64,000 nucleotides of DNA from Minisyncoccota bacterium (lineage in GTDB: Bacteria > Patescibacteriota > Minisyncoccia > Phycocordibacterales > UBA918). Made by a program: the position numbers and the translations under genes. Location of the stretch: NCBI GenBank assembly GCA_021734905.1, contig JAIPIB010000001.1, positions 71,476 to 135,475 of the forward strand, in the 5' to 3' direction. The notes under the pieces were generated by a model that was not told the origin of the DNA, made no database searches, and saw only the letters and a program-made list of their open reading frames with translations. Position 1 is the first letter of the stretch; every line of letters begins with the position of its first letter. Shown piece after piece: positions 3,598 through 57,112 of the stretch.

Positions 3598-3650
3598 ATG
3601 TGCTATAATATATATAGAAGGTGGGTCATCGCTCACTAGAGGAGAATACA

Positions 3651-3830
3651 ATGCACGTTGTGAAAAAAGAAAGTAAGGCCGAAATACTCATGGGCTCCAT
3701 TTCTTTTGTTCTTTTCCTTTACCTCTTGATTGGGACGCCAGTATGGATGTCCCTCGCAGAAGGAAAGCCAATCTTCCCCGGTCTGCTCTATGAGCCAGCG
3801 GTGAGATTGATTCAAGCGGTTCTCGGGTAA
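3651..3830 (+). CDS. Small membrane protein (59 aa)
   Basis: gctataat -10 at 3603-3608 and GAGGAGA 7 nt upstream of ATG 3651. One TM helix (ILMGSISFVLFLYLLIGTPVWM). Followed by a hairpin plus T-run at 3854-3885. Confidence 0.35.
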   Translation: MHVVKKESKAEILMGSISFVLFLYLLIGTPVWMSLAEGKPIFPGLLYEPAVRLIQAVLG

Positions 3831-35304: not shown

Positions 35305-36339
35305 ATGAAAAAGAAGAAAGTATTTGTTACAGGAATCACTGGTCAAGACGGATCGTATTTAACGCCGATCTTACTTGATGCTGGATATGAGGTTCATGCA
35401 CTCGTACGTCTTCGTGGTGGAGATCGACCAGTCATTATTGATGACCTTGCGCGAGAAAAAAAAGTCATTTTTCATACAGGTTCACTTACGGACCTTTCTT
35501 CTTTAAGTACGATTTTGGAGGGGGTGAGACCAGATGAAGTTTATAATCTTGCGGCACAATCCCACGTAGTGTCTTCATTCAAAAGTCCCGTTGAAACATG
35601 GGACGTAAATTATTATGGTCTTGGACGCTTGGTCAATGAAGCACTTCGAGTAAATCCTGATGTGCGTATTTACCAAGCGTCGACAAGTGAAATGTTTGGT
35701 AATTCTCCAGCACCACAAAGTGAGAATACCCCGTTTGATCCTCAGAGTCCGTATGCAATGTCAAAAGCGATGGCACACACTGATTTTATTATGCACAAGA
35801 GAGCTTCAATGGGCGCGTTTGCCGTATCAGGCATTCTCTTTAATCATGAGTCACCAAGACGGGGAAGGGATTTTGTCACACGAAAAATTACGTTTTCTCT
35901 AGCTAAGATCGCATTTGGTTTACAAGAGTGTCTTGAGCTTGGGAACCTTAATGCAGTACGTGATTGGGGACATGCTGAAGACTATGTCCGCGCGATGTTT
36001 ATGATGCTCCAGCAAGACACTCCAGAAGATTATGTCATAGCGAGTGGCGAGTCACATTCAGTGCGAGATTTTGTTGAGATTGCCGCACAGTATTTTGGCA
36101 TCAATATTGCATGGGAAGGAGAAGGAAAAGCTGAAATAGGTCGTAACAAAATGACGGGAAAGATAGTTGTAAAAGTGAACCCAGAGTTTTATCGACCACG
36201 GGAAGTCAACTTCATTCAGGGGGATGCGACAAAGGCACACACAAAACTCGGATGGAAACCAAGGTATAGCTTTAGTGATATTGTCACTGAAATGGTGAAG
36301 TCTGATCAGGAATTAGTCCGTAGAGAATATAAATTATAA
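35305..36339 (+). CDS. gmd: GDP-mannose 4,6-dehydratase (paralog 1)
   Basis: KKVFVTGITGQDGSYL, YAMSKAMAH (YxxxK), ILFNHESPRRGRDFVTRKIT. Confidence 0.85.
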   Translation: MKKKKVFVTGITGQDGSYLTPILLDAGYEVHALVRLRGGDRPVIIDDLAREKKVIFHTGSLTDLSSLSTILEGVRPDEVYNLAAQSHVVSSFKSPVETWDVNYYGLGRLVNEALRVNPDVRIYQASTSEMFGNSPAPQSENTPFDPQSPYAMSKAMAHTDFIMHKRASMGAFAVSGILFNHESPRRGRDFVTRKITFSLAKIAFGLQECLELGNLNAVRDWGHAEDYVRAMFMMLQQDTPEDYVIASGESHSVRDFVEIAAQYFGINIAWEGEGKAEIGRNKMTGKIVVKVNPEFYRPREVNFIQGDATKAHTKLGWKPRYSFSDIVTEMVKSDQELVRREYKL

Positions 36340-36343
36340 TCGT

Positions 36344-37498
36344 ATGATTAAAAGTACCTATCTAAGAACCGCTATCCTTTTTTTGTTATCATTATTCTTT
36401 TCACTTTTCAGAGGAAAAGCTACTCGTGTGGCACCGAATATGACGCGTGTCGGAGTAATATATCTTACAGGTAATGTTGGGGATATGATCTTTTGTACAC
36501 CCATATTTCGAGCACTTAAGGAAGCAAAACCAGAAAGTGAAATGTATGTTATTGGTAGGAAGCGAAATGCAGATACACTTCGTTATAGTCCTCATGTGAA
36601 GGAATATATTGAATGCCCAAACTCGCCATACGCACTTTGGAAGATTCTGAGAGGACTCAAATTACAGTATGCCTTTATACTCAATCCTTCAACGCTTGAA
36701 CTTGCTCTTTTTTATCTTGCGAACGTCCAAGCGATTGCGACATTTTCTGCGCCAATTGCGTCTGCAGAAACACGAACGTATAGAATCTTAAAGAAACTTT
36801 GTATACAAATTCCATTTGCAGCTGGTGAGAATTTTGCAACTGAGAATCTTAAGTTAATTGCTCCCCTCGGTATTGTGTCTACTGATACGAGGAAGCATCT
36901 CTACTATTCAGAAGAAGCTCGTATTGGTATCCAGAATTTTCTTAAAGAACAAAATGTTGTTCTGGGGGTCAACATGGTCATTGCCCTCGCTCCTGGGGCA
37001 GGTACAAAAATAAAACAATGGCCGGCAGATAGATTTGCAAAGCTTGCAGACCACTTGTATGAAAAATATCATACCCCTATTTTTATCGTAGGAGGCCCTG
37101 GCGATAAAAAAGAATTTGAAGCGATGTCACAGGCACTAAATACTGAGACAAAGGTAGTATCATGTCTGCATCACACAATTGATGAACTAAAGGCATTTAT
37201 GGCACAAATAGATATTGTTATTGCAAATGATAGCGCACCAATCTATGTTGCTGAAGCTTTCGATAAAGCTACCGTAACGATTGTTGGGCCAACAGATGAA
37301 AATGAACATCCACCAAAAGGTGTGTTCGACAGAGTGGTAAAAAGCAAGGACAGAGGAGTTCCTGCTCTTGCTGCCAGTATTGCCAATGAGCAATCAAACA
37401 ACAGTGAGGACGCACGAAGTCAAATAGAAAAAGTGACTGTTCTAGAAGTGGTTGATACTGCTGATGAACTCATTGCTACCCTTGAAAAAGGCAGATAA
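36344..37498 (+). CDS. Glycosyltransferase family 9 (ADP-heptose:acceptor heptosyltransferase-like)
   Basis: N-terminal VIYLTGNVGDMIFCTPIFRALKEAKPESEMYVIG and C-terminal IFIVGGPGDKKEFEAM...IANDSAPIYVAEAF, typical of GT9. Confidence 0.65.
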   Translation: MIKSTYLRTAILFLLSLFFSLFRGKATRVAPNMTRVGVIYLTGNVGDMIFCTPIFRALKEAKPESEMYVIGRKRNADTLRYSPHVKEYIECPNSPYALWKILRGLKLQYAFILNPSTLELALFYLANVQAIATFSAPIASAETRTYRILKKLCIQIPFAAGENFATENLKLIAPLGIVSTDTRKHLYYSEEARIGIQNFLKEQNVVLGVNMVIALAPGAGTKIKQWPADRFAKLADHLYEKYHTPIFIVGGPGDKKEFEAMSQALNTETKVVSCLHHTIDELKAFMAQIDIVIANDSAPIYVAEAFDKATVTIVGPTDENEHPPKGVFDRVVKSKDRGVPALAASIANEQSNNSEDARSQIEKVTVLEVVDTADELIATLEKGR

Positions 37499-37542
37499 AC
37501 AGTGAATTTTAAATTTAGTAGTCATATGATATATTTACATCG

Positions 37543-38580
37543 ATGAAAAAAGCTCTCATTACAGGGATTACAGGACAAGACGGGTCGTACCTTGCTGAAT
37601 TTTTGCTACAAAAAGGCTATGAAGTTCATGGTTTAATGCGTCGTTCAAGTACGGAGCCACTGATTCGCATTCAGGATATTGTTTTTGATGGAAAGGTTAC
37701 TCTTCATATGGGTGATTTACGTGATCCTGCCTGCATCCAGCGTGTAATAGAACTTGTATCTCCAGATGAGATCTATAATTTTGCAGCACAGTCAGACGTC
37801 GGGATTTCGTTTAAGTGTCCAGAGGAAGCTTATTCCATTAACTTTGAAGGCGTACGAGATTTGGTTGAGGCAGCTTGGAAACACAATAAGGATGTTCGTT
37901 TTTACCAAGCGTCGACAAGTGAGATGTTTGGCTCAACGAATCCTCCTCAGAATGAAAAGGCGCCATTTCAACCAGTAAGTCCATATGCAGAAGCAAAACT
38001 CAAAGCCCATCAAGATGTTGTCCTTGAGTATCGGAAAAAATATGGAATGCACATTTCTTCAGGTATTCTTTTTAATCATGAGTCACCACGTAGAGGTAAA
38101 CATTTTGTGACTCGAAAAATCACTCACTCACTCGCTAAAGTAAAGCTTGGACTTCAGACACATGTGACTCTCGGTAACCTTGAAGCTAAGCGAGACTGGG
38201 GATATGCAGGAGATTATGTAGAGGCTATGTGGCTCATGCTTCAGGCTGAGACAGCTGATGATTATGTTATAGCAACGGGTGAGTCACGGTCTGTCCGTGA
38301 TTTTGTCGAGGCTGCAGCTGATTCATTGGGTATGAAAATTACTTGGGAAGGAGAGGGTGTTGATGAGGTTGGTAAAGATGAACATGGGGATGTTGTGGTT
38401 AAAATCTCTAAGAATTTTTACCGCCCGGCCGAAGTTGATTATCTCCTCGGAGATGCCACAAAAGCAAAAGAGAAACTTGGTTGGACTCCAAAAACCACGT
38501 TCCAAGAACTCGTACACATGATGGTTGCTTCAGACTTGAAGGATGCAAAATATGAGCAAATGAAAAAGAGTATTGAGTAA
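37543..38580 (+). CDS. gmd: GDP-mannose 4,6-dehydratase (paralog 2)
   Basis: KKALITGITGQDGSYLAEFLLQKGYEVHGLMRRSS, YAEAKLKAH, ILFNHESPRRGKHFVTRKIT. Confidence 0.85.
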   Translation: MKKALITGITGQDGSYLAEFLLQKGYEVHGLMRRSSTEPLIRIQDIVFDGKVTLHMGDLRDPACIQRVIELVSPDEIYNFAAQSDVGISFKCPEEAYSINFEGVRDLVEAAWKHNKDVRFYQASTSEMFGSTNPPQNEKAPFQPVSPYAEAKLKAHQDVVLEYRKKYGMHISSGILFNHESPRRGKHFVTRKITHSLAKVKLGLQTHVTLGNLEAKRDWGYAGDYVEAMWLMLQAETADDYVIATGESRSVRDFVEAAADSLGMKITWEGEGVDEVGKDEHGDVVVKISKNFYRPAEVDYLLGDATKAKEKLGWTPKTTFQELVHMMVASDLKDAKYEQMKKSIE

Positions 38581-38608
38581 ATTATTGATAATGCACCTTT
38601 AAGTATCT

Positions 38609-38998
38609 ATGAGTATACACATTCCTGTTTCAGCTGCAGAACTTATTGATAAAATCACAATTCTAGAAATCAAATGTTCGGAATTCACTGACAGTAATAA
38701 GCTTGCTAATGTTAAGGATGAACTTGATGCTCTAACCGAGGTAGTGAAGAGTAGTGTTAATGATTCGCTCGAACTCGAAAAGTTACACACAGAACTTCGG
38801 CTCATTAACAAGAAGATTTGGGATTCTGAGAATGACGTACGACAATTTTGGAATGATGATGAAAAATTTAATGCTGGAGCAAAACAGTCTCATTATTATA
38901 ATGATGAGCGAGCGCGAGTAAAAAAAGAAATAAACCAACTACTTGGTTCAAGTATTATAGAAGAAAAATCGCACCCAGCGTATGAGCACAAGGTCTAA
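38609..38998 (+). CDS. Hypothetical coiled-coil protein (129 aa) embedded between Gmd paralogs
   Basis: Overlaps both neighbours by a few nt, so operonic. No family recognised. Confidence 0.45.
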   Translation: MSIHIPVSAAELIDKITILEIKCSEFTDSNKLANVKDELDALTEVVKSSVNDSLELEKLHTELRLINKKIWDSENDVRQFWNDDEKFNAGAKQSHYYNDERARVKKEINQLLGSSIIEEKSHPAYEHKV

Positions 38999-39989
38999 AC
39001 GAGCCTTCATAACGGGAGTATATGGACAGGATGGATCGTATCTTGCTGAGGTTCTTCTTGATAGTGGATATGAGGTTCTTGGACTTGTGTCTCCTTCAGA
39101 TAAAAAGAATCAAGATGCAAAACTTTTTCAAGAGAAAAAAGAATTCTCTCTTTTTGTTGCTAATTTAGAAGATGCGGGACGTATCGTGGAAAAACTTGAA
39201 GAATTTCGACCACATGAAATATATAATCTTGCTGCAGTCTCTGATTTAAAAACAGCAAAAGAACGACCAGAGTATACCTACGATATAAATTATACTGCAT
39301 TCAAAAACCTTGTTACACATGCGACTGACATTGATTCTTCTGTGAAGATCTTTCAGGCACTCTCATCAAGAATTCTTGTTCCCAATACACAAGGCGTCAT
39401 CGAGGAGACTTCACAATTTTCTGAACCGAGTAATGCGTATGACAAAGCAAAAAGAGATTCGTATACGTTTGTCCGTGACTACAGAGACCGTGGTTTTTTT
39501 GTAGCATCAGGCTTTCTCTGTAATCATGAATCACCACGGAGGGGTCCTCGTTTCGTGACAGGGAAGATCGCACGAGGAGTCATTGATATTGAAAACGGAG
39601 CTATTGAAAAAATATATGTCGGGAATGTTAACGCCCTAAGGGACTGGAGTCACGCAAAAGATGTCGTGAGGGCGATGTATGCCGTCCTTCAAGTTCCTGT
39701 GTCAGACGATTATGTTATTGGGTCAGGTGAACTTCATTCGGTAAGAGATTTTATTAGTGAGGCTTTTAATGCTATAAAAATGCCCCTTACGTGGGCAGGT
39801 GAAGGTATAGATACGTATGCAGTCGATTTGAGCGGTACCGTTCGTGTAGCTGTTGATCCAGAATTCTTTCAAGTCGATGATAACCCAGTAGTCTCAAATA
39901 CAAAAAAGTTAAAGACAGACACAGGATGGTCACCAAAAATCTCTTTTTCAGAACTTATCTCGGAGATGGTAGAGGCTGAGCGCTTGTGA
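38982..39989 (+). CDS. GDP-mannose 4,6-dehydratase family protein (divergent paralog 3, possibly altered specificity)
   Basis: KRAFITGVYGQDGSYL, YDKAKRDSY, FLCNHESPRRGPRFVTGKIA. Confidence 0.75.
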   Translation: MSTRSKRAFITGVYGQDGSYLAEVLLDSGYEVLGLVSPSDKKNQDAKLFQEKKEFSLFVANLEDAGRIVEKLEEFRPHEIYNLAAVSDLKTAKERPEYTYDINYTAFKNLVTHATDIDSSVKIFQALSSRILVPNTQGVIEETSQFSEPSNAYDKAKRDSYTFVRDYRDRGFFVASGFLCNHESPRRGPRFVTGKIARGVIDIENGAIEKIYVGNVNALRDWSHAKDVVRAMYAVLQVPVSDDYVIGSGELHSVRDFISEAFNAIKMPLTWAGEGIDTYAVDLSGTVRVAVDPEFFQVDDNPVVSNTKKLKTDTGWSPKISFSELISEMVEAERL

Positions 39990-39990
39990 T

Positions 39991-41265
39991 TTATTTCTGA
40001 AAAGTAATTATCTCAAACTTTGGGCAGGGGACAATGAAGGCTCCTCCTTTCTCGAGGTACTCCTTTTCACGTGTTGTAAACTCATTTATGAAGTGCCAAG
40101 GTAAAACGAGCATGTAATCAGGTTTCTTATTTCGAGCTTCTTCCTCAGAGAATATTGGTATGTTAGATCCTGCTGTTTTCTTTCCATATTTTATTGATGA
40201 TCGCTCGGCGATTCCATCAATATGGTTGTCATTGAGGCCGTACCACTGAAGAAGAGTGTTTCCTTTTGTTGAAGCACCATAACCCATGATTTTCTTTCCA
40301 TCAAGCTTTGCCTGTTCAATAAAATCCATAGTCTGCTTCTTGAGCTCTTGTATCTGGGAGAAAAAGTCTGTATACGTCCGTGGATCTTTGAGGTTCATTT
40401 TTTCTTCGAGAGCGAGAATCCCATCGATACGCATTTGCGCAACGTCCCTGTATGGAGCTGTGGCGAAAAGCGATGCAGTTGCATCTTTTTTACGAATGTA
40501 GATTCTAAAACTACCACCGTTGATGTCGTTTAACTGACAGTCGACTACTCTAAGATCATGCTGGTCAAGGAGGTATATAAGAGACTCAAGGCTGTAATAC
40601 TCAAGATGTTCATGGCAGATATTATCAAAGGCGAGTTGCTTGAGCATGAGAGGAAGGTAACTCATCTGGATAATCCAGAGTCCTTCATCATCAAGTGAGT
40701 CGTATATATCAGAGACAAAGGCATGTGGTTCCTCGAGATCATAAAACATCGCGATGGACGTAATTATTTTTGCTTTCTGTAACCCTGTCTCTTTATATTT
40801 GTCTGCCGTGAAGTAGTCAACAATAACTTCGTCTGCATGTTTTTTTGATTCTTCCTCAAGGAAGGTATTAAGTGCTGGGTCGAAGCCAACTCTTTTTATT
40901 GAAGGGTCGACATTTGCTAGTAGCGTCCCATCGTTACACCCAATATCAAGCCACACATCATCTGAAGTAGGGTGTATCATTTTTGTTGCGCTCTCGGCTA
41001 TTTCTTTGAGTTCCTGTCGCATTGTCGCATTGGTGCCAGAGCGATACCAATACTCTCGGTACATTGCATCAAAGTCAGCAGTATGGGCGAGCTGGACGAG
41101 TCCAGATTTTGGAGCAAGCATCATTTTAAGTTCAACAGGTTCAAGACGTGGCTCAATATCAGGGTCAATGAAGTCTGAAATGTGGAGTTCTCCCAAGGTG
41201 AAAAGCTCAATGAGTGGCTCTCCAGATATTCGGCATACGGCACGATCCTCCTTGTTTTTTAGCAT
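39991..41265 (-). CDS. Sugar C-methyltransferase-like class I SAM methyltransferase (TylCIII/NovU-like architecture)
   Basis: LDIGCNDGTLL motif I. Two-domain size of 424 aa, consistent with an NDP-hexose C-methyltransferase N-terminal plus C-terminal domain. Assignment by overall resemblance only. Confidence 0.55.
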   Translation of the reverse strand: MLKNKEDRAVCRISGEPLIELFTLGELHISDFIDPDIEPRLEPVELKMMLAPKSGLVQLAHTADFDAMYREYWYRSGTNATMRQELKEIAESATKMIHPTSDDVWLDIGCNDGTLLANVDPSIKRVGFDPALNTFLEEESKKHADEVIVDYFTADKYKETGLQKAKIITSIAMFYDLEEPHAFVSDIYDSLDDEGLWIIQMSYLPLMLKQLAFDNICHEHLEYYSLESLIYLLDQHDLRVVDCQLNDINGGSFRIYIRKKDATASLFATAPYRDVAQMRIDGILALEEKMNLKDPRTYTDFFSQIQELKKQTMDFIEQAKLDGKKIMGYGASTKGNTLLQWYGLNDNHIDGIAERSSIKYGKKTAGSNIPIFSEEEARNKKPDYMLVLPWHFINEFTTREKEYLEKGGAFIVPCPKFEIITFQK

Positions 41266-41317
41266 GGTGAGATTATAACGTGTGACTCATGTACGTACAA
41301 GCACCTGCTGAAGGGGT

Positions 41318-42115
41318 ATGATACACTTCTACCATATATGGTTGTGGTGGGATCTGACTTTAGATATGTTCAAATTCATTAAAGAAAGATTATATTTTTT
41401 GAAACGGTGGTATCGACTCGTTTTTACCTATCCACAAGCAAAAATTTTGGTTGAGGAATCTCTTAATTATGATGAATACTGGAAAGAGAAGCGGGGTAAT
41501 ATCGATGGTACGCAAGCGCGCGCGATTTCAGCGAATGAAAAGATGCGAGCGGATTATGTTGCTCGAATCATTGGAAATACTGACTCTGTAGTGATTGGAG
41601 ACATTGCTTCTGGCCCGGGAGTCATCTACAACTACCTTAAGGGCAAAATACAGTTGCGGGGATACATCGGTTATGAATATTCTGAATATGCACTCAATGT
41701 TGCAAGATCTTTAGGTATGACGGGAGTGCAGTTCGATATAAATTCAGAGCGGGATCTCTCAGAAGTCCAAGAAGCAGATTATTTTCTTATGCTCGAAATT
41801 CTTGAGCATATCCCACATTCGGAGAAAGTTTTAGCATCTATGTATAACAAAGCGAGAAAAGGAGTATTTTTTTCATTCCCGAATTCTGGAAACTTCTTAT
41901 ATCGACTTAGGGTGCTCTTCGGTAGGATGCCAGCACAGTGGATTAAATTTCCTAATGAACATTTGCGTTTCTGGACATATACGGACTTGCAGTGGTGGCT
42001 CAAAGCTCTTGGATATAAAGACTATGAAATTTATGCGTACCGCGGTGCTCCAGTTTTAGAGAAAATCTGGCCAGCACTCTTCGCGGGTAGTTTTGTGGTT
42101 TATCTTAAAAAATGA
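41318..42115 (+). CDS. Class I SAM-dependent methyltransferase
   Basis: VVIGDIASGPGVIYNYL motif I and DYFLMLEILEHIP. Confidence 0.6.
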   Translation: MIHFYHIWLWWDLTLDMFKFIKERLYFLKRWYRLVFTYPQAKILVEESLNYDEYWKEKRGNIDGTQARAISANEKMRADYVARIIGNTDSVVIGDIASGPGVIYNYLKGKIQLRGYIGYEYSEYALNVARSLGMTGVQFDINSERDLSEVQEADYFLMLEILEHIPHSEKVLASMYNKARKGVFFSFPNSGNFLYRLRVLFGRMPAQWIKFPNEHLRFWTYTDLQWWLKALGYKDYEIYAYRGAPVLEKIWPALFAGSFVVYLKK

Positions 42116-42168
42116 CTATAACTTGAAGATAGCAACCTTTTATGTGTAATTTTAGTACTATTGGTTAG

Positions 42169-43167
42169 TTGTATCAGCAAAATAATATGTTAGAACGTGA
42201 TTTAGTTGAAGAAAGAATTAAACAGACTATTGCTGCGGAAGTTGCAGCTGTCTCCAACTTGTCTGAGGGCATTGATGATAATTTTTATCGTGCAGTTGCA
42301 TTAATTGCTGATCGAGGTGGAAAGATACTCATCACCGGGGTTGGGAAATCAGGGTATATTGCTATGAAGATGGTCGCGACTCTTATTAGTCTTGGTCATG
42401 AATCGGTATTTTTAAATCCGCTTGATGCTTTACATGGAGATTCTGGGATGGTCAAGGATGACGATGTGTTGGTCGTCTTTTCTTTTTCTGGTGGATCACC
42501 TGAGTTGGTGAGGATCGTTGAGCACCTTAAGAAACATTTTTCTATTGGTGTCGTGACAATTACTGGGAATTGTAATTCTATGCTTTCAAAATTGTCTGAT
42601 GAAGCGATCACTTTTTCGGTGGAAGAAGAAGGGTGTCCTTTAGGTCTTGCACCTATGGCAAGTACGACAGCATCACTCGTAATTGCTGACAGTATTGCTG
42701 CAGCATTGACGTCACCTGACACTTTTAGGCAAGAACATTTTGCTATGTTCCATCCTGCAGGAAGTCTCGGGCTTTCATTAAAAAAAGTCAAAGAAATCAT
42801 GCGCGGAGGCGACGAATTACCAAAGGTATCGATGTATATTAGTTTTGAGGAAGTGCTTGAAGCAATAACTTCGCAACGGCTCGCGCAGATTGTCGGTGTT
42901 GTAGACGAGGAAGGGTATTTGGTTGGAGCACTCGGTGATGGAGATATAAGAAAAATGCTTATTAAACATGGAGACCTTCGGGGGAAACAGATTAATATCT
43001 TCATGAATCAATCACCTAAAACAATCAATGAAGATGATAGTCTGCAGGTCGCACTTCAAACAATGAAAGAACATAAAATTAACAATCTTTTTGTGACTGA
43101 TAGCAACAATGTCTATATTGGGTTTATTCATCTGCATGACATTGTTGGTGATTATGCAACGTCTTGA
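42169..43167 (+). CDS. kpsF: Arabinose-5-phosphate isomerase (KpsF/GutQ; SIS domain plus tandem CBS)
   Basis: GKILITGVGKSGYIAMKMVATLISLG (SIS) and two CBS repeats at the C-terminus. Confidence 0.85.
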   Translation: MYQQNNMLERDLVEERIKQTIAAEVAAVSNLSEGIDDNFYRAVALIADRGGKILITGVGKSGYIAMKMVATLISLGHESVFLNPLDALHGDSGMVKDDDVLVVFSFSGGSPELVRIVEHLKKHFSIGVVTITGNCNSMLSKLSDEAITFSVEEEGCPLGLAPMASTTASLVIADSIAAALTSPDTFRQEHFAMFHPAGSLGLSLKKVKEIMRGGDELPKVSMYISFEEVLEAITSQRLAQIVGVVDEEGYLVGALGDGDIRKMLIKHGDLRGKQINIFMNQSPKTINEDDSLQVALQTMKEHKINNLFVTDSNNVYIGFIHLHDIVGDYATS

Positions 43168-43200
43168 TTTTTTTACAGAAAAGTTTTTCCATCAAGTTAA

Positions 43201-44706
43201 ATGAATTCTATGGAGCCTAATAAACATTATGCAATTGATCTTCTTACTCGGATTAATGCATTGCAACATAACGGAAAAGATATTTCCTTAGCCTTTATCG
43301 AAGGCAAGTATTCACGATGGGCATTTCAGCAGTTTTTCCTCCTGAGTCAGATTGAGGAATTCAGTAAGACAAAAGATTTTTCAAATTATATTAAGAGACG
43401 AAAGCCACGATATGGGACCATTAGTATTTTTTTTGTCATCCTTTTCGAAGTTGTGACTGTGTTTTTTACGATACTACAAATTATGTACGTTCGTATTCAT
43501 CGTCCAAGAGTAATAACATTTTCATCGGATTTTTTAGATGCTTCGACCCATCTTAATCCACGATTGCGAAATATTTATTCATATTTTCATGCTAAAAATA
43601 TATCTTACGTTGAAATTCTCCATGTTACGACAGTGCGAAATTTTCTTATAAATATATGGAAACGAGGAGGATTAAGTATTTATCTTGAAGCATTTAACAC
43701 AGTATCACGTGCATGGACTTTTGTGAGTCGAAAAACTAATGCTGATGACTTTGTTAAGGAGCTTGATTTACAGAACATTCATGAAGATGAGCGTAAATTT
43801 GTCGAGTACCTTATTGCTGAGGCTGTTGAAAAAATTCAAGTCGCTAAAATAAATTCCGTCATTATTCAAGCCTTTTTACGTTTCAGTGGTGTGCGGGAAT
43901 ATGTATCTGCAGATGATTTCCGATATATACCTGAGTTGCTCCTTGCTTGTGAAAGGGAACATATACCATCGTATGTATTTCAACACTCAAATTTTGGATA
44001 TCTGACTGGAATGTATTTATTACCACCACAGATATATATTTTTCCTTTAATTTTCTTTACGTGGAATGCTTACTGGAAGAGAAGAATTAAAGAAATAAGT
44101 CCATTTTTTTCAGAGTATGGGTCTCGTATTGAAATCGGAGGACGTTCATTTACACCAGCGCAACCCGTACAGGTCATTCGTAAGAAGTTGGACAGCACAA
44201 GAGATAGCATTTCAGTACTAATTCCATATGAAGTTTCTGTGAGCAGGGATCAAATTATTCCATACACTAGCCAACTTCTTGGCGACTCACGAATCAGAAT
44301 ATTTTTTGTTCTAAGAGGAACCATTGATCAGATTGATTATGGAATGCAACTGGATAAATACTTTACTTCTGAACATCAAAAGAGCCCACAACTGGTTGTC
44401 GTGGAACCATCTGGACGGCAAGGAGCCGTCGAAAATTGTAATGTCATTGCAGGCGTGTATTCTGGTTTCCTTGATGAGTCGATTGAGACAGGTGTGCCAA
44501 TTTGTGTATTCATGACTGATTTTCTCACGGTAAATAGGCTCGATGAAGACAATCTTGCGTCCACTATTGACTATGTTCAGGGGAATATCTATGATCAGCT
44601 ACGCAGTGCTTGTATGACACCAGACCATATTTTGTCTGAGAGAAGAGAGAGAGTTCATTCGGGCACTGTAGATATTCGTAAGACACTGCAGAGGATATTG
44701 GAATAA
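43201..44706 (+). CDS. Hypothetical membrane-associated protein (501 aa) sandwiched between kpsF and kdsB. Candidate Kdo-handling transferase, by inference only.
   Basis: One TM helix around residues 70-95. No motif I can name. The function is suggested solely by gene context. Confidence 0.45.
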   Translation: MNSMEPNKHYAIDLLTRINALQHNGKDISLAFIEGKYSRWAFQQFFLLSQIEEFSKTKDFSNYIKRRKPRYGTISIFFVILFEVVTVFFTILQIMYVRIHRPRVITFSSDFLDASTHLNPRLRNIYSYFHAKNISYVEILHVTTVRNFLINIWKRGGLSIYLEAFNTVSRAWTFVSRKTNADDFVKELDLQNIHEDERKFVEYLIAEAVEKIQVAKINSVIIQAFLRFSGVREYVSADDFRYIPELLLACEREHIPSYVFQHSNFGYLTGMYLLPPQIYIFPLIFFTWNAYWKRRIKEISPFFSEYGSRIEIGGRSFTPAQPVQVIRKKLDSTRDSISVLIPYEVSVSRDQIIPYTSQLLGDSRIRIFFVLRGTIDQIDYGMQLDKYFTSEHQKSPQLVVVEPSGRQGAVENCNVIAGVYSGFLDESIETGVPICVFMTDFLTVNRLDEDNLASTIDYVQGNIYDQLRSACMTPDHILSERRERVHSGTVDIRKTLQRILE

Positions 44707-44739
44707 GTCCATATGTTTGAAATAAACTAAGAGATTAGT

Positions 44740-45495
44740 ATGAATATAAATAAAGATATAAAAGTACTCGGAGTAATATCAGCTCGAATTGGATCAACAC
44801 GAGTATCGAGAAAGATGCTTAAGGATGTCTATGGGAAGACGCTCATTTGCAGGGCGTATGAGAGGACTGTTCAGGCAAAAAAATTAGACGCACTTGTAAT
44901 TGCAACAGATTCGGATGAAATTGAAGCTGAAGCAAAATCATTTGGAGCAAAGGTTATTCGGTCCATCAAGGAGCATGCGAATGGTACGGAACGCACAGCT
45001 GAAGCCGTAAAAATATTTGATGAATTTCTTCCTGATACTGTGGTGACTGTTTGGGGTGATGAGCCAACCTACCCTGCCTCAGCAATTGATGATTGTATTG
45101 ATTTGTTTCATACGGGTAAGTTTGATGTCGTTATACCTTCATTCAAGATCCATAATCCAGCATCCATAGATGATCCAAGTGTGGGGAAGGTGGTTACCGA
45201 TATTCATGGACGTATTTTGTATCTCTCTCGTTCTACTATTCCACATAATTATAAAGGTGCGAGTGTCGATTACTATCATGCGAGTGGTGCAATGATTATG
45301 CATCGAGACTTTTTTGATATTTATAGTTCACTTCCAAGAACAGGATTAGAGGCGATAGAAGATATTGAACAACTGAGAATTCTTGAGCAAGGATATTCGA
45401 TTGGAACTATTAAAACCAATTTTTTGAATCAAGGGGTAAATACACCGGAAGATTATGAAGCCGTCGTTCAAATATATAAAGAACGAGAAGGGTAG
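44740..45495 (+). CDS. kdsB: 3-deoxy-manno-octulosonate cytidylyltransferase (CMP-Kdo synthetase)
   Basis: HANGTERTAEAV...VVTVWGDEPTYP, LYLSRSTIP, EDIEQLRILEQGYSIGT...GVNTPEDY align block-for-block with E. coli KdsB. Confidence 0.8.
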   Translation: MNINKDIKVLGVISARIGSTRVSRKMLKDVYGKTLICRAYERTVQAKKLDALVIATDSDEIEAEAKSFGAKVIRSIKEHANGTERTAEAVKIFDEFLPDTVVTVWGDEPTYPASAIDDCIDLFHTGKFDVVIPSFKIHNPASIDDPSVGKVVTDIHGRILYLSRSTIPHNYKGASVDYYHASGAMIMHRDFFDIYSSLPRTGLEAIEDIEQLRILEQGYSIGTIKTNFLNQGVNTPEDYEAVVQIYKEREG

Positions 45496-45512: not shown

Positions 45513-46793
45513 TTATTTAGAATTATCTTTTTCTGATCTTGAAAAGAGAATCATTTGTAGAATTATAGTCGCTCCTTTTGAAAGTAAAATAGATAGAATG
45601 GCGCCGAGAACTCCATAGTGGGGAATAAGTATGACAAAGAAAAAGATTTTTAACCCAGAGTCAAATATTCTGATTGAATAAAGAGATTTTATTTTTTTTT
45701 GGATTTGAAGAGCGTTACCGTGAAGGATTCCAGCAGCAATAATGGGAAGAATGAGTATGTAGATTGATGCATACCATGAAGCCTCAACATATTGAGGAAA
45801 CAGCAATGAATAGAGTGGTTTCGCTATTATCCAGAAAAGTATAGTGATAACGAGCGTGACGATGACGTATGTTCGTGTGTGAGTTTTGATACTATGAGCA
45901 AGTTGCGCGTCATTTTTTGTACTAAGTCTTGGTATAACCATCGAATTAATTAATTTGTTGATACTTCGAATTTGATCAGGAATTCCAACTGAAAACGCAT
46001 AAATAGCTAGTTGGTATGGTCCAAGGAATTGGAAAATAAGGATTTTGTCGATATATTCAGCTATAACACTAATGATGTTTCCAACACTGAGGTGCCTACT
46101 GAGTGCCTGCTCAGAGACGTCGACACTATTTTTGTCAGGGTTATAAAATCGGAGAGTTCTTTTTTGAGCAAGATATTGATAAAGCGTCATCGAGCCATTG
46201 TAGGCAAGGAGTATCCAAAACACACTTGTGGCATCAAAAAATATAATACATGCTATGGAAGACACTACGGTAATTGAACTGAGTACTTGATTTTTTGCGA
46301 GATTCTTAAAATCTTTTTTTCCGTTTAGAAACGAAGTGTGCAGTATGAAAATATTTTGCAGATATACAAAAGTGCTCATGAGTATGACTCCAAGTCCAAG
46401 AACATAATTATCGTTATAGATGTAGTATCCGCCAAAGAAAAGCGAGATTATTATTGCGGGAGTACCCCATAGAGCAGAGAGTTTTTTTTCGTATTCAAGC
46501 GACCCATCAAATCCCTTTGAAACTGATTGCAGCACTGCGCTGGCAGCACCAGTAAGCGAAAAAGCACTTATTATTCCAGCAACAGCAAGGATGTATTTAT
46601 ATTGTCCATAGGTAGTTGAATCAATATAGTTCGCGAGAAGTACCGAAACAAGAAATCCACAAAGTGTACCAAAGGCATGACTACTACTAATTATAGTACC
46701 GTTTTTAAGTAAATAATGAATATCAATATGAAATTTTTTTTGTATGATGTTGAGAAAAGATTCTAATTTCATGGTGTGTGTTGATTTTACCAC
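45513..46793 (-). CDS. Wzx-type oligosaccharide flippase (polysaccharide biosynthesis protein / MOP superfamily)
   Basis: 426 aa with about 12 predicted TM helices and a typical Wzx hydrophobicity profile. Confidence 0.7.
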   Translation of the reverse strand: MVKSTHTMKLESFLNIIQKKFHIDIHYLLKNGTIISSSHAFGTLCGFLVSVLLANYIDSTTYGQYKYILAVAGIISAFSLTGAASAVLQSVSKGFDGSLEYEKKLSALWGTPAIIISLFFGGYYIYNDNYVLGLGVILMSTFVYLQNIFILHTSFLNGKKDFKNLAKNQVLSSITVVSSIACIIFFDATSVFWILLAYNGSMTLYQYLAQKRTLRFYNPDKNSVDVSEQALSRHLSVGNIISVIAEYIDKILIFQFLGPYQLAIYAFSVGIPDQIRSINKLINSMVIPRLSTKNDAQLAHSIKTHTRTYVIVTLVITILFWIIAKPLYSLLFPQYVEASWYASIYILILPIIAAGILHGNALQIQKKIKSLYSIRIFDSGLKIFFFVILIPHYGVLGAILSILLSKGATIILQMILFSRSEKDNSK

Positions 46794-47320: not shown

Positions 47321-49009
47321 GTGTCTCCACATATTCGATCTTTTCTCATAATTGGTTCTGAAAATTTTGAAGGGGTATACCCAGCTTTTAATGATGATGA
47401 AATCACGTATCAAGCGAGAATCAAAGAAGCGGTGGAAGGAAATTTGAACATTGGGAATCCATACATTAAGGAGCATATGAGTGATCCGTTTATTATGCCA
47501 CCAGTTGGTGAGTGGATAATTGCCATCGGGGCATGGATAACGAATACATCAGTACCGTTTATGACGAGTGCAAGTGATTTTGTTTTTGGTTTTGTTGACT
47601 TTGTGCTTGTCTACGCACTTTTTCTTATGGTCACCAGAAAAAGAAAATGGGTGGCACTCTTTTATACAGTACTGTTTATTTCTTTCTCTCTTTCGACATT
47701 TGGTCGCCCAATAAGCCCGCAACTCAATTCCATTTTTTTATATTTGGGAATTATAGCTACTGCGCGCATTTATTTTCTTGATGGTGTATCAAAGAAGTCG
47801 TGGAACCGCACGGCCGGCCTTATTGCTGGTATTACCTGTTTTATCTCCCCGTATTTTTTCACCGCACTACTCGTATTTTATTTTGCACTTTTTTTACTGA
47901 AAGGAGTATTTGAAAAAAGTATTGAACCACTTAAAAGAAACATTCCATCATTTCTGATAACATTTATACCATTTGCGTTACTCTATGCATTCTTTCAAAT
48001 ACGCGCTGCTGGAGATCCTTCGTATAGTGAAACTGTGCTTCGGTATGGTCTTTTCCAGTCACATCTCCCAGGAAGTTATACAAACGTGGCCTTTGGTGTG
48101 CTTACATTGGGGGTAATTTTTATAGCATACAAATTTCTCACACAAAGAGCATTTATTTTTGGCCTAAGTGTTGTGAGTAGTATATGGATACTTAATTTAC
48201 AAAACATTATTACGGGCAAATCACTTCAATTTTCAAGCCATTATCTATTTACCACGATTCTTTTTGTACTCATGGCGCTGGCAGTTATTCACGGGGCACT
48301 TCTCGAACAGAAAGGAAAAACTAGTAATAGGAAAACTATGGCTATTATAGGAATTATTTTTGTGGTATCGCTTGTTGCATATAATCAGCGAAATGAATTT
48401 ATGCATATTGCCAATATGCCATACACACGAGAGGAGCTCATCGAAGAGCAGAGGAAAATGAAAGTGTTTGAATGGCTGAATGAAAATACTGAGCCAAATT
48501 CTGTCGTGTATTCATTGGGAGATAATTATGATTTTCTTATTCCGATCTACACTGAAAATAAGGTTTATTATAATTTTTATGCGGCGCTCTACCCAGCATC
48601 GAATACTGAAACGGAAGAGCGATGGCTTATACAGAACATGTTTGTACCGGAGATAGATTCGAACACGATACGAGATAGGCAGCGAGAATTTTGGGGTAAT
48701 CGATTTATTGATGTCTACCAATCCGCCGAAAATAGAAAAAAAATTGTTGCCTTTTTGACACGAACAAAGTACGCTCCTTCAGAAATGATTGACGAAAGTT
48801 TCATCGACTATATGCATACAAGATGGGAAGGAATTAAAGAGCAACCACATGAGGAACTATTCGGACGCTATCAAATTGATTATATTCTTCTGAGTAAAGA
48901 ATATTTGTATTTCAATGATACAAAGAAACGTCTTGATGAAACAAAGAATATTACTTTGCAGACCACTATGAATGGAGAATTAATTTATAGTGTTGTGGAC
49001 CCACTGTAG
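47321..49009 (+). CDS. Integral membrane protein (562 aa): about 9-10 TM helices plus a roughly 230-aa soluble C-terminal domain. GT-C-like glycosyltransferase candidate.
   Basis: GTG start in the ORF track. The in-frame upstream codons 47243-47320 encode a hydrophobic stretch with no ATG. The topology resembles PMT/ArnT-type GT-C enzymes. Confidence 0.5.
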   Translation: MSPHIRSFLIIGSENFEGVYPAFNDDEITYQARIKEAVEGNLNIGNPYIKEHMSDPFIMPPVGEWIIAIGAWITNTSVPFMTSASDFVFGFVDFVLVYALFLMVTRKRKWVALFYTVLFISFSLSTFGRPISPQLNSIFLYLGIIATARIYFLDGVSKKSWNRTAGLIAGITCFISPYFFTALLVFYFALFLLKGVFEKSIEPLKRNIPSFLITFIPFALLYAFFQIRAAGDPSYSETVLRYGLFQSHLPGSYTNVAFGVLTLGVIFIAYKFLTQRAFIFGLSVVSSIWILNLQNIITGKSLQFSSHYLFTTILFVLMALAVIHGALLEQKGKTSNRKTMAIIGIIFVVSLVAYNQRNEFMHIANMPYTREELIEEQRKMKVFEWLNENTEPNSVVYSLGDNYDFLIPIYTENKVYYNFYAALYPASNTETEERWLIQNMFVPEIDSNTIRDRQREFWGNRFIDVYQSAENRKKIVAFLTRTKYAPSEMIDESFIDYMHTRWEGIKEQPHEELFGRYQIDYILLSKEYLYFNDTKKRLDETKNITLQTTMNGELIYSVVDPL

Positions 49010-54892: not shown

Positions 54893-57112
54893 ATGAAAGA
54901 TATTGCAAAAGGATTAGTGTACATGGGGATTTTTGCCATCCCTTTCATTCCGCTTATCATCTCTAATTCAATGTTCTTCCCATTTATTACTGGAAAGAAC
55001 TTCACATTCCGTATCCTTGTCGAAATCGTTTTTATTGCATGGATAATTCTCGCTGCGTATGAGCCAGCGTATCGACCGAAACGTTCGGCGATAGCGTTGA
55101 GTTTCCTTTTGTTTCTTGTTGTTATGTTTGTCGCTAATATTAATGGGCAATATCCATTAAAAAGTTTTTGGAGTAACTTTGAACGAATGGAAGGATACGT
55201 AACACTCGTACATACTTTCGCCTATATGCTTGTTCTCGGAAGTGTGTTTACGACCCAAAAAATTTGGGATAGGTATTTTATGACCATCATTGGTTCAGCA
55301 ATGATTCTTTCTCTGTACGCATTTGCACAGCTTTCTGGAAATATTGTCATCAATCAAGGTGGGGGACGACTTGATGGAACACTTGGGAATTCTGCCTATA
55401 TGGCAATCTACACGCTCTTCCTTATTTTTATAACATTTTTTATGCTGCTCCGAACTCAGAGCAAAGGCATGCGATATGGGTATAGTGCACTCATACTTCT
55501 CTTCATGTATTTATTACTGCAGACTGCCACTCGAGGAACAGTACTAGGTCTCGTAGGAGGTATGTTTATTGCTGTCTCTTATATCGCATTATTAATAAAA
55601 AGTCATCCACATGTACGTAAGTACGCAGTTGGTGGATTGGTGGCAATAGTAGCGAGTGTGACACTTTTCATTACATTTAAGGAATCTTCTTTCATTCAAG
55701 GAAATCCCTATCTCGCACGTATTGCAACTATTTCTTTAAAAGAAGGATCAAACCGTTTTGAAATTTGGAGCATGGCATTTGAGGGGGTAAAAGAACGTCC
55801 ACTTCTTGGATGGGGGCAAGGAAACTACAATTATGTCTTTAACAAGTACTATGAGCCTGAACTTCATGGGGGAGAAGCATGGTTCGACCGTGTTCATAAT
55901 ATTGTTATGGATTGGTTGATTGCTGGTGGATTCATTGGTGCCGTTGCCTATTTCTCAATTCTTGGTTCTGCAGTGTACTATCTTTTCTTCCGCCCACTCT
56001 TCAAGAAGGATGATGAAGCGTTTACTGTCGTGGAACGTGGAGTTCTCTTGGGAATTCTTGCAGGGTACACAGTACACAATCTCTTTGTGTTCGATAATAT
56101 TGTGAGTTATGTGTTTTATGGAACGATACTCGCATATATTCATTCACGGACAAGTACTGGTATTCCTGCACTTGAGCGGTGGAAGATCGATGTTCGTGTT
56201 GTTGAACAGGTAGTAGTTCCTGTTATGACAATCCTCCTTGTCATAACAGTCTACTTTGTAAATGTTCCAGCTATACAGGCATCGAAAGATATTATTAACG
56301 CATTCCGAGCAAAAGATCCGAATGAGATGCTTAAAAATTTTGATATTGCTCTTGCACGAAATTCGTTTGGAAATCAAGAGATACGCGAACAACTTACTCA
56401 ACGTGCGCAATCAGTCTTTCAAGATCCGAACGCACCAGAAGCATTAAAACAGAAGACGTTTAAACGTGTTGAAGAGGAGTTGCAAAAGCAGATAGAAGAG
56501 AAGCCCAATGATGCAAGAGTCGAGGTGTTTATCAGCTCATTCTATCGAATGACTAATAATCTTGATCAGGCGGTTACTCACCTTGAGAAAGCTCGATCAC
56601 TTTCCCCACGAAAGCAGCTCATTATCTTTGAGCAAGGTACGGTAGCATTGCAGAAACAGGAATTCGAGAAAGCTACAGAATTCTTTAAGGAGGCTTACGA
56701 ACTTGGACCACAGTTTATAGAGTCGCGTGTGTATTACGCAACCGCATTGGTTTATGGTGGGCAACTTGGGCTTGTTGGCGACCTTATCCAAACAGAAGAA
56801 CAGAAGAATGCCTTTGCAGTAAATGAAAATGCAGTTAGAGCAGTTTACCAGGCAAAAATGTATCCAATGCTTAAAGATATGTTTGCGCGACAAATTGTGC
56901 TAAATCCAAACAATGGACAAGTAAGAACGAATCTTGCGTATGTATTGAGCGAGACGGGAGATACTGCAGGAGCAATCGACGTCCTTACAAAGGCAGGAGA
57001 GGATATTCCAAGTTTCAAGGAACAGGCGGATCAATTTATAGCAACCATTAAAAATGAAGATCCTGCAACACCGACTGTAGAAATTAATGGGCAGAAAGTT
57101 CAGACTGAATAA
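54893..57112 (+). CDS. O-antigen ligase/polymerase-like (Wzy_C) membrane domain fused to C-terminal TPR repeats
   Basis: About 12 TM helices with a periplasmic loop TRGTVLGLVGG...LLGWGQGNY. C-terminal roughly 250 aa show TPR-like repeats. Confidence 0.7.
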   Translation: MKDIAKGLVYMGIFAIPFIPLIISNSMFFPFITGKNFTFRILVEIVFIAWIILAAYEPAYRPKRSAIALSFLLFLVVMFVANINGQYPLKSFWSNFERMEGYVTLVHTFAYMLVLGSVFTTQKIWDRYFMTIIGSAMILSLYAFAQLSGNIVINQGGGRLDGTLGNSAYMAIYTLFLIFITFFMLLRTQSKGMRYGYSALILLFMYLLLQTATRGTVLGLVGGMFIAVSYIALLIKSHPHVRKYAVGGLVAIVASVTLFITFKESSFIQGNPYLARIATISLKEGSNRFEIWSMAFEGVKERPLLGWGQGNYNYVFNKYYEPELHGGEAWFDRVHNIVMDWLIAGGFIGAVAYFSILGSAVYYLFFRPLFKKDDEAFTVVERGVLLGILAGYTVHNLFVFDNIVSYVFYGTILAYIHSRTSTGIPALERWKIDVRVVEQVVVPVMTILLVITVYFVNVPAIQASKDIINAFRAKDPNEMLKNFDIALARNSFGNQEIREQLTQRAQSVFQDPNAPEALKQKTFKRVEEELQKQIEEKPNDARVEVFISSFYRMTNNLDQAVTHLEKARSLSPRKQLIIFEQGTVALQKQEFEKATEFFKEAYELGPQFIESRVYYATALVYGGQLGLVGDLIQTEEQKNAFAVNENAVRAVYQAKMYPMLKDMFARQIVLNPNNGQVRTNLAYVLSETGDTAGAIDVLTKAGEDIPSFKEQADQFIATIKNEDPATPTVEINGQKVQTE

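Follow-up and report, generated by a model that had tools for sequence, protein, structure and literature searches.

Kdo is regarded as a signature of Gram-negative lipopolysaccharide (LPS) and capsules. What, then, do genes of Kdo activation serve in the genome of a CPR bacterium, and what is the role of the protein (X) that is encoded there between kpsF and kdsB? CPR bacteria have been placed within a monoderm clade (bioRxiv 10.1101/2021.05.31.446380), and no paper on Kdo in CPR or Patescibacteria was found in the literature we searched. Here, we analyzed a 64-kb stretch of DNA (the window) in which these genes are located. A preliminary description had reported a Kdo-type activation module and a GT9 gene in a CPR-type genome; all of the genes it named are long open reading frames (ORFs) and their coordinates hold. 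The CPR origin was also confirmed, i.e., X is 100% identical to K9M10_00545, deposited as a hypothetical protein from a 'Candidatus Pacebacteria bacterium' MAG (the deposited copy is 498 amino acids long and begins at the second Met; the ORF in the window has 501). We consider, with a probability of roughly 60%, that these genes form the branch for ulosonic acid within a Wzx/Wzy-type glycan cluster of a monoderm Pacebacteria genome and that X moves Kdo from CMP-Kdo.

The surface-glycan cluster around kpsF, X, and kdsB is probably neither an LPS locus nor a kps locus. The region is part of a ~40-kb Wzx/Wzy-type cluster that occupies about 14–57 kb of the window. A gene for a heptosyltransferase-like GT9-family glycosyltransferase (36344..37498, + strand) is followed by one for GDP-mannose 4,6-dehydratase (gmd, 37543..38580, +; TIGR01472 443.7, cut-off 415), and this neighborhood is kept in several relatives (relative loci carry L numbers below). 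A DUF6165 protein gene (38609..38998, +; PF19662 32.8 bits) comes next; it accompanies gmd and the C-methyltransferase gene and is found in L002, L005, and L006. The GMD-like SDR paralogue behind it (38982..39989, +; PF16363 257.9 bits) missed the gmd equivalog (248.8 versus 415) and probably acts on 4-keto-6-deoxy sugars as a reductase or an epimerase. The sugar C-methyltransferase (39991..41265, − strand), which has a Methyltransf_13/23/14 architecture (PF08484 155.7 bits), is 62–80% identical to its counterparts in the same three relatives. Then come a MetW-like SAM methyltransferase (41318..42115, +; PF13489 and PF07021 matches), the KpsF/GutQ-family arabinose-5-phosphate isomerase (42169..43167, +), X (43201..44706, +), the KdsB-like CMP-3-deoxy-ulosonate (CMP-Kdo) synthetase (44740..45495, +), and, convergent with kdsB, a Wzx-type polysaccharide flippase (45513..46793, −; PF01943 60.1 bits). 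The cluster also contains a CTP_transf_like plus cupin gene (49086-49796) and ends with a membrane protein that combines a Wzy_C (O-antigen ligase/polymerase-like) domain with TPR repeats (54893..57112, +; PF04932 58.4 bits). A scan for promoters and terminators gave a signal no better than chance.

The activation module is borne out by profile scores at the family and subfamily levels. KpsF (332 amino acids) has an SIS domain (PF01380, 64.1 bits) followed by two CBS domains (PF00571) and passes the cut-off of the kpsF family (TIGR00393, 247.1 versus 203.7), so that the predicted arabinose-5-phosphate isomerase stands at the family level; it scores below the KdsD (221 versus 505) and GutQ (220 versus 481) equivalogs, both of which were built on enterobacterial proteins. 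The KdsB-like protein (251 amino acids; PF02348 CTP_transf_3, 121.1 bits) is above the cut-off of the KdsB subfamily (NF003952, 200.9 versus 193) but under that of the strict equivalog (TIGR00466, 128.8 versus 155.2). The proposed CMP-Kdo synthetase is thus upheld as a member of the KdsB subfamily and not as the strict equivalog, and the activated sugar could therefore be another 3-deoxy-ulosonic acid. Genes at the same position in relatives do reach TIGR00466, i.e., in L004 (156.2), in L009 (215.6), and in L013 (189.9), where kdsB is part of a gene fusion. Together with ~59 clusters that share ≥45% identity, the KdsB-like protein forms a clade of its own; beyond it, identity falls to 35–41% against generic KdsB.

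X itself has no Pfam or NCBIfam match, and the 21 close members of its family gave only scattered chance matches to Pfam at E up to 10. The family is large, with ~520 clusters at 50% identity. According to a confident structural model, X is a GT-B-fold protein with two Rossmann-like domains and an inter-domain cleft; a hydrophobic helix near residues 70–100 is present in 96% of the family members. When X and its 21- and 148-sequence profiles were searched against the PDB, the sole match was a weak one to a GT28-type glucosyltransferase (E 0.012), and tblastn of X against PLSDB plasmids returned no match. A scan of GTDB genomes with narrow peptide patterns recovered three X loci, all in CPR MAGs.

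The gene neighborhood of X is highly constant. All eight distinct close loci show a methyltransferase–X–kdsB arrangement in which kdsB is immediately 3′ of X and a GT9 homologue is located ~6–7 kb upstream; kpsF is located between the methyltransferase and X in the window. In relatives, the X block starts with a MetW-like methyltransferase gene; it adjoins X directly in six of their seven close loci, whereas in L006 another methyltransferase gene separates the two. Wzx adjoins kdsB in seven of the eight close loci; relatives that keep the pair, distant ones included, are L002, L003, L005, L006, L007, L009, L011, and L013, and the Wzy_C-TPR gene is syntenic in L003, L005, L007, and L009. Distant family members (24–26% identity) are still found near KpsF and KdsB in L009 and L013, with kpsF immediately upstream of X, or, in L008, near PseF/NeuA-like cytidylyltransferases. 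In L013, a single ORF of 700 amino acids (P0063), directly 3′ of kpsF, is a natural X::KdsB fusion: residues 8–464 resemble X and residues 461–692 resemble KdsB, and it is this KdsB part that passes TIGR00466 (189.9 versus 155.2). CMP-Kdo is chemically labile, and it would make sense for the synthetase and the transferase to be tightly coupled or fused. X had been put forward as the obvious candidate for the Kdo transferase of this locus, and the GT-B fold, the constant adjacency to kdsB, and the fusion in a relative all support that proposal.

Which GT-B group is X related to? In hhalign, the 148-sequence X profile matched a Glyphos_transf/A-2_8-polyST protein with 90.6% probability (E 1.3e-6, 203 columns), and the same profile gave 0.9% for GT9 and 0.3% and 1.2% for two GT4 controls; the signal came from the 148-sequence profile only, the shallow profile being uninformative. 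The bridging TagF/polyST-like protein, on whose single sequence this link is based, is encoded at L008:10128-11426 (PF04464 36.2 bits, PF07388 28.8 bits); phmmer of this protein against the PDB found nothing. Neither PF04464 nor PF07388 matched any examined member of the X family directly. From this one bridging sequence, X appears to be remotely homologous to the TagF/polysialyltransferase group specifically rather than to GT-B enzymes generally.

The same alignment places K370-x-R372-P/G373 of X on K-V-H-P of the partner and Y420-S421 of X on its Y-S. In Kdo and sialyl transferases, a (K/R)xHP motif together with a Ser pair binds the CMP phosphate (PMC12887879); the definitions of (K/R)xHP and of QxxxD, which carries the Asp nucleophile, were taken from the same paper. 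Only three of 158 X-family members have [KR]xHP in the C-terminal domain, and no alignment column holds HP; QxxxD is present in 33 of the 158, again with no conserved column, the conserved Q383 having Y387 after it. None of the known Kdo-transferase families that were compared matches X by HMM, including PF05159 (Capsule_synth) and PF04413 (GT30), and no similarity to KpsC, KpsS, WbbB, or KrkA was found by HMM or structure. The replacement of the motif His by Arg and the missing HMM match are points that speak against X as a Kdo transferase. New families of such enzymes are still emerging, e.g., GT140 (PMC12887879) and KdoT (PMC12856342). From its fold, its fusion to KdsB in a relative, the conserved gene order, and the aligned motifs, our best reading is that X represents a new transferase family with CMP-Kdo (or a CMP-ulosonate) as the donor.

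A pathway can be proposed on this basis. KpsF, judged by its family, would make arabinose-5-phosphate; Kdo would be formed by a Kdo-8-P synthase and a phosphatase whose genes are located elsewhere, and the KdsB-like enzyme, assigned at the subfamily level, would convert it to CMP-Kdo. X, presumably a membrane-anchored GT-B enzyme and distant kin of the TagF/polysialyltransferase group that uses cytidine nucleotides, would then work at the cytoplasmic side of the membrane and transfer Kdo from CMP-Kdo onto an oligosaccharide linked to a lipid; the CMP phosphate may be held by R372, S421, and, in the family at large, K370. Since X does not have the Asp nucleophile motif of the retaining Kdo transferases, inversion by direct displacement, giving alpha-Kdo, is the more likely mechanism. 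The GT9-like enzyme and GT4 enzymes may extend the unit, with methylation, flipping by Wzx, and polymerization or ligation by the Wzy_C-TPR protein to follow.

The second step in this scheme would be encoded outside the window; the preliminary description had already noted that KdsA and KdsC are missing from it. No match was obtained in the 64 kb by tblastn with a relative's CPR-type aldolase and KdsC-like protein, Pfam scans of 53 window ORFs contained no DAHP_synth_1 or KdsC-type domain, and neither kdsA nor kdsC was among the genes called in the 10 kb downstream; this counts against the pathway model. In relatives, a CPR-type DAHP-synthase-like aldolase gene adjoins kdsB (L004, L005, and L006), and L004 also has a KdsC-like gene. 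The aldolase family has 817 members, and its named matches are all Patescibacteria; no K9M10 locus tag occurs among the 120 matches listed.

Several other readings need to be weighed. X may be a glycosyltransferase or a TagF-like phosphotransferase with another donor (CDP-alditol or another CMP-ulosonate), or it may add a sugar onto Kdo, in which case its link with kdsB would run through the acceptor or a shared pathway and not through CMP-Kdo as the donor. The nearest detectable relative indeed matches both polyST and Glyphos_transf (CDP-glycerol phosphotransferase), PseF/NeuA-like cytidylyltransferases rather than KdsB-like ones accompany the most distant X-like member (L008), and the CTP_transf_like plus cupin gene is located in the cluster, with a homologue beside kdsB in L009. 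However, this gene is not consistently near X, the adjacency of X and kdsB is invariant in the close loci, and it is simpler to see in the single polypeptide of L013 a synthetase fused to the enzyme that uses what it makes; we consider this reading with another donor or a role on Kdo as acceptor unlikely. It is more doubtful still that X is no transferase at all and is a GT-B-fold sugar-nucleotide enzyme, e.g., a NeuC-like hydrolysing epimerase, that supplies a precursor of the ulosonic acid. None of the 21 members matches the Epimerase_2 HMM at E up to 10, hhalign links X to a TagF/polyST-like protein, and the conserved membrane helix would be unusual in a soluble precursor enzyme. KpsF, the aldolase, KdsC, and KdsB of the relatives form a complete phosphosugar route to which an extra step would be superfluous, and the cluster would be left without an enzyme consuming the CMP-sugar.

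The two classical settings of Kdo fit less well. The preliminary description had offered a KpsS/KpsC-type capsule system. On this reading, X would act as a retaining beta-Kdo transferase and assemble on a lipid a poly-Kdo linker, to be exported by an ABC transporter. The flanking of an unassigned transferase by kpsF and a kpsU-like kdsB does recall kps regions 1/3; the missing PF05159 match, the X-family alignment with no (K/R)xHP or QxxxD column, and the finding of a Wzx flippase next to kdsB and a Wzy_C-TPR protein, with no KpsM, KpsT, KpsE, or KpsD in the window, make such a group-2-like capsule very improbable. We give the least weight to a genuine LPS-like inner core, i.e., lipid A that carries Kdo and heptose within a diderm-like envelope. 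A GT9 heptosyltransferase-like gene does accompany the Kdo activation genes in every close locus, and ADP-heptose genes are located beside GT9 in some relatives only, i.e., in L003 (GmhA and an HldE-like gene next to the GT9 homologue) and in L007 (a PfkB kinase and an adenylyltransferase near GT9, with no GmhA homologue in the stretch examined). However, the window contains neither GmhA nor HldE; the GT9-like protein (384 amino acids) matches PF01075 at 63.8 bits against a cut-off of 22 in its C-terminal half only (residues 209–334) and misses the heptosyltransferase I, II, and III equivalogs (75.2 versus 134.6, 69.5 versus 170.2, and 51.2 versus 185.3, respectively). Neither lpx (lpxA-D and lpxK) nor waaA was found among the window ORFs scanned or in the flanking 10 kb, and the relative loci examined, like the window, yielded no lpx, waaA, lpt, or msbA-type gene; together with the monoderm placement of CPR cited above, this leaves the suggested lipid A-based, LPS-core-like structure with nothing in the window to support it. 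Nor is X clearly homologous to any unrelated family. The GT9 gene itself is borne out by the PF01075 match; that its product is a heptosyltransferase acting on Kdo is still something we infer.

The picture of Kdo as a Gram-negative signature would change if monoderm, host-dependent CPR bacteria have a dedicated and conserved module of the Kdo type, and X, if it is a CMP-Kdo transferase as we propose, would join the few known groups of Kdo transferases (GT30, GT73, GT99, GT107, GT140, and KdoT). Such cells would expose acidic, inner-core-like sugars where their surface meets their hosts and would be traceable by Kdo-azide click labeling; the X::KdsB fusion provides a concrete testable construct. 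A more far-reaching combination is somewhat less probable than its opposite: that X is a new CAZy-level family of inverting CMP-Kdo/CMP-ulosonate transferases from the TagF/polysialyltransferase lineage, with Arg in place of the HP His, that some CPR bacteria display an LPS-inner-core-like Kdo with a GT9-added sugar on a single membrane, and that this Kdo is supplied by a CPR-specific DAHP-synthase-like Kdo-8-P synthase.

Compared with the Gram-negative Kdo pathway (KdsD/KpsF, KdsA, KdsC, and KdsB/KpsU), the locus shares members of the KpsF family and the KdsB subfamily, and among the relatives there are KdsB genes that pass the strict equivalog and one KdsC-like phosphatase; it differs in its monoderm CPR host, in that no canonical KdsA was seen, and in that the relatives' aldolase is a very divergent DAHP_synth_1 protein. 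The GT9-like protein resembles the LPS heptosyltransferases WaaC/WaaF/WaaQ in exceeding the PF01075 gathering score and, in L003 and L007, in having ADP-heptose genes (HldE-like and HldD-like) near its homologue; unlike them, it falls far under the equivalog cut-offs and is flanked in the window by GDP-mannose dehydratase paralogues, with neither ADP-heptose genes in the cluster nor a lipid A context. X differs from the inverting WaaA (GT30) in having no PF04413 match and in its acceptor, for which neither lipid A nor lipid IVA would come into question here; KdoT of Acinetobacter baumannii is an inverting Kdo transferase as well, of GT-B fold and without an assigned family. The retaining beta-Kdo transferases KpsC/KpsS (GT107), WbbB (GT99), and KrkA (GT140) are also GT-B-derived and have in common with X a gene neighborhood of the kpsF/kpsU type and CMP-Kdo, the donor proposed for X; the HP and QxxxD motifs of the KpsC/KpsS-type enzymes are missing from X. 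The CDP-alditol phosphotransferases TagF/TarL (PF04464) and the bacterial polysialyltransferases (PF07388, GT38) are GT-B enzymes with (K/R)xHP as a cytidine-nucleotide motif, the His of which is Arg in 155 of the 158 X-family members; unlike them, X has an extra conserved N-terminal region of ~70 residues and a hydrophobic helix, and its partner is KdsB rather than a CDP-alditol or CMP-sialic acid synthetase.

The stretch 36344-45495 holds nine closely packed genes in our gene calls and HMM scans, whose ORFs and assignments agree with the preliminary description of a Kdo activation module (KpsF-X-KdsB) accompanied by a GT9 heptosyltransferase-like gene. The GT9-like gene (36344-37498) matches PF01075 with 63.8 bits (cut-off 22) through its C-terminal half alone and scores far under the cut-off on every LPS heptosyltransferase equivalog in the HMM scan. 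It is followed by a true gmd member (37543-38580; TIGR01472, 443.7 against a cut-off of 415) and, from the HMM scans, by genes for a DUF6165 protein (38609-38998), a second GMD-like SDR (38982-39989), a sugar C-methyltransferase on the minus strand (39991-41265), and a MetW-like methyltransferase (41318-42115). The KpsF/GutQ family protein (42169-43167) has an SIS and two CBS domains and scores 247.1 on TIGR00393 (cut-off 203.7); protein X (43201-44706) has zero matches in Pfam and NCBIfam; the KdsB-like protein (44740-45495) reaches 200.9 on NF003952 (cut-off 193) and stays under the strict TIGR00466 equivalog (128.8 versus 155.2). A Wzx-type flippase gene (45513-46793) is convergent with the latter. 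KpsF and the KdsB-like protein are unremarkable members of their families; what is unusual is the host. A protein identical to X is deposited as K9M10_00545 from a 'Candidatus Pacebacteria bacterium' MAG (contig of 204,587 bp), which bears out the CPR host proposed earlier. Our literature search found no paper on Kdo in CPR or Patescibacteria.

The gene neighborhood of X was compared at eight distinct close loci, i.e., the window (=L001), L002 (=L010), L003, L004, L005, L006 (=L012), L007, and L011. A source is named in the records of L002/L010, L006/L012, and L011, in each case a CPR MAG. In all eight, kdsB lies directly 3' of X, a MetW-like methyltransferase heads the block, and a GT9 homologue is found 6-7 kb 5' of X; a Wzx gene adjoins kdsB in seven. 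Among these loci kpsF is present in the window only, and it lies directly 5' of X in the distant L009 and L013, where X shares 24-25% identity with the window protein. The decisive item for the association of X with KdsB is P0063 (L013:1485-3587), a single 700-aa ORF present on two contigs that forms a natural X::KdsB fusion: residues 8-464 align with X from end to end (E 1e-43), residues 461-692 are 36% identical to the window KdsB (E 3e-40), and the KdsB part passes the kdsB equivalog (189.9, cut-off 155.2). Its gene has kpsF directly 5' and a weak 2OG-Fe(II)-oxygenase-like gene 3'; the protein would offer a ready-made test construct for the coupling of CMP-Kdo synthesis to transfer. Among the X-like proteins examined, that of L008 is the most distant; it is flanked by PseF/NeuA-like cytidylyltransferases and a TagF/polyST-like gene. 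Together with the kdsB and fusion loci, this indicates that the X family as a whole tracks CMP-ulosonate synthetases.

A word-indexed search with X returned only 21 clusters (32-56% identity) of proteins about 495-513 aa in length and devoid of Pfam domains, and an exhaustive profile search returned 521 cluster representatives at E <= 1e-3 (240 at <= 1e-30), most of those listed being 470-510 aa long. In the confident AlphaFold2 model built with the family alignment (pLDDT 87.8, pTM 0.86), some 70 N-terminal residues precede a long helix (residues 73-100), of hydrophobic character in 96% of the 158 family sequences, and a GT-B body of two Rossmann domains. Residues conserved family-wide are D110, R121, E138, H141, R155, Y161, D238-D239-x-R241, Q261-H262, W292, P342-Y-E344, (K370)-x-R372-(P/G), Q383-x-x-x-Y387, and G418-x-Y420-S421. 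The 148-sequence X profile matches the L008 neighbor protein with 90.6% probability (E 1.3e-6, 203 columns), the controls being 0.9% for the window GT9 and 0.3% and 1.2% for two GT4 proteins; that neighbor scores over the cut-off on both PF04464 Glyphos_transf (36.2 bits) and PF07388 A-2_8-polyST (28.8 bits). The alignment places P-Y-E of X on A-Y-E, (K)-x-R372-(P/G) on K-V-H-P, and Y420-S421 on Y-S. On this match and these motifs we place X as a putative distant branch, without the motif histidine, of the TagF/polysialyltransferase group of cytidine-nucleotide-binding enzymes, reached through a single bridging sequence; such a kinship would fit a CMP-linked donor. The GT-B family that X represents is unclassified, and contextual evidence points strongly to a reaction of a known type.

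Some relatives also carry candidates for the earlier steps. Next after kdsB, L004 has a gene for a KdsC-like HAD (78.7 bits, under the 106.95 cut-off of the KdsC subfamily model) and one for a DAHP_synth_1 protein of 307 aa (13053-13976, minus strand); the same aldolase is directly 3' of kdsB in L005 (12339-13286) and L006 (12379-13329). It has diverged very far from the canonical KdsA and DAHP synthase enzymes, its best score on a DAHP synthase model being 33.8 bits, and its family has 817 database matches, every named one from Patescibacteria (Roizmanbacteria, Falkowbacteria, Microgenomates, Parcubacteria). Given its position beside kdsB and this distribution, CPR appear to own a Kdo-8-P-synthase-like enzyme, for which the aldolase would be a CPR-specific candidate; a DAHP synthase role is disfavored since CPR generally lack aromatic amino-acid synthesis. 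ADP-heptose-type genes flank the GT9 gene in L003 (1701-9245: GmhA, PfkB kinase, HldE-C-like adenylyltransferase, epimerase, and HAD) and L007 (2851-9242: PfkB kinase and adenylyltransferase, with no GmhA homologue in that stretch). An E1 dehydrogenase/transketolase pair and a zinc ADH also occur in both loci and point tentatively to a heptose with a modified side chain.

The Kdo-type module is part of a far bigger surface-glycan cluster (~14-57 kb of the window) bordered by Mur ligases, MurB, and SecA, with eight GT4 genes in the HMM scans, a GT2 and GtrA pair, two polysaccharide deacetylases, and several methyltransferases. A sulfotransferase (28834-29682) and a bifunctional ATP-sulfurylase/APS kinase for PAPS synthesis (53009-54685) suggest that the surface glycan of these CPR bacteria is sulfated; both genes are conserved in L005 and L009, while L002 and L004 share just the sulfotransferase. 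Three GMD-family paralogues (35305-36339, 37543-38580, 38982-39989), just one passing the gmd equivalog, look, together with the C-methyltransferase and DUF6165, like a route to a C-methylated 6-deoxy sugar or 6-deoxy-heptose-type sugar, which may be the GT9 donor. An AsnB-like glutamine amidotransferase (30479-32335), with homologues near X in L002, L004, L005, L006, L009, and L013, could convert the carboxylate of a uronic or ulosonic acid to its amide. Two ORFs adjoining the GT2 and GtrA pair (47321-49009, 562 aa; 50632-51756, 374 aa) have no family match and no homologue at E < 1e-8 in related loci, the identical contig excepted; they are possible membrane proteins of GT-C-like or Wzy-like type. 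The last gene (54893-57112), syntenic in many relatives, encodes a 739-aa Wzy_C (O-antigen ligase-like) and TPR protein, whose role in a monoderm could be that of a polymerase, or of an O-oligosaccharyltransferase glycosylating pilins or S-layer proteins. A 190-aa protein with a PaaX-central/Cas2-like domain (21240-21812) stands alone inside the cluster beside a PHP-domain protein, and 5' of the cluster are a T4SS-pilin-like protein (3187-3651, minus strand), a TrwB/VirD4-like coupling ATPase (10929-12938), and a lamin-tail and PKD-domain protein (12919-14358).

No lpx, waaA, lpt, kpsMT, kdsA, or kdsC was found in the 64-kb window or 10 kb past its 3' end, and CPR have been assigned to a monoderm clade (bioRxiv 10.1101/2021.05.31.446380). 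Judged by the genes of this span, the locus is a Wzx/Wzy-type cell-surface glycan locus, neither LPS nor group-2 capsule: a true LPS is extremely improbable, and a KpsS/KpsC-type system very improbable.

We consider it reasonably probable (about 0.6 for the whole scheme) that X takes CMP-Kdo from KdsB and passes Kdo to a lipid-linked oligosaccharide. From the family assignments, KpsF would supply arabinose-5-phosphate and the KdsB-like enzyme would make a CMP-3-deoxy-ulosonate. CMP-Kdo is its most likely product, A5P isomerase being peculiar to the Kdo route; genes for Kdo-8-P synthase and phosphatase would lie elsewhere in the genome. X would be anchored by its hydrophobic helix, and the known lability of CMP-Kdo gives a rationale for tight X-KdsB coupling and for their fusion in one relative. 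A different donor for X, or Kdo serving as its acceptor, is unlikely against the conserved kdsB neighbor, and a NeuC-like precursor enzyme is a slim chance beside the TagF/polysialyltransferase kinship. For X as a Kdo transferase, a direct-displacement (inverting) mechanism is favored because there is no Asp nucleophile motif. Extension of the unit would fall to the GT9-like and GT4 enzymes, its decoration to the methyltransferases, its flipping to Wzx, and its polymerization or ligation to Wzy_C-TPR.

Another recurrent neighbor of X (L002:8321-9163, minus strand; L009:10382-11179; L013:3608-4426) encodes a protein of ~270 aa whose 2OG-Fe(II) oxygenase signature is weak (best E 2.9e-5, under the cut-off), with no homologue in the window; it recalls KdoO, the Fe/2-oxoglutarate Kdo 3-hydroxylase that produces Ko. 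Newly described Kdo-transferase families include GT140 (PMC12887879) and KdoT (PMC12856342). The CMP-binding motif (K/R)xHP is the defining feature of sialyltransferases and retaining beta-Kdo transferases, and the Kdo enzymes have a QxxxD nucleophile motif as well (PMC12887879); X, in contrast, lacks both, as no column of the 158-member alignment has HP or QxxxD, and [KR]xHP occurs anywhere in the C-terminal domain in just three of the 158 members. X differs likewise from the TagF/polyST-like protein of L008, R372 standing in X where that protein has its motif histidine.
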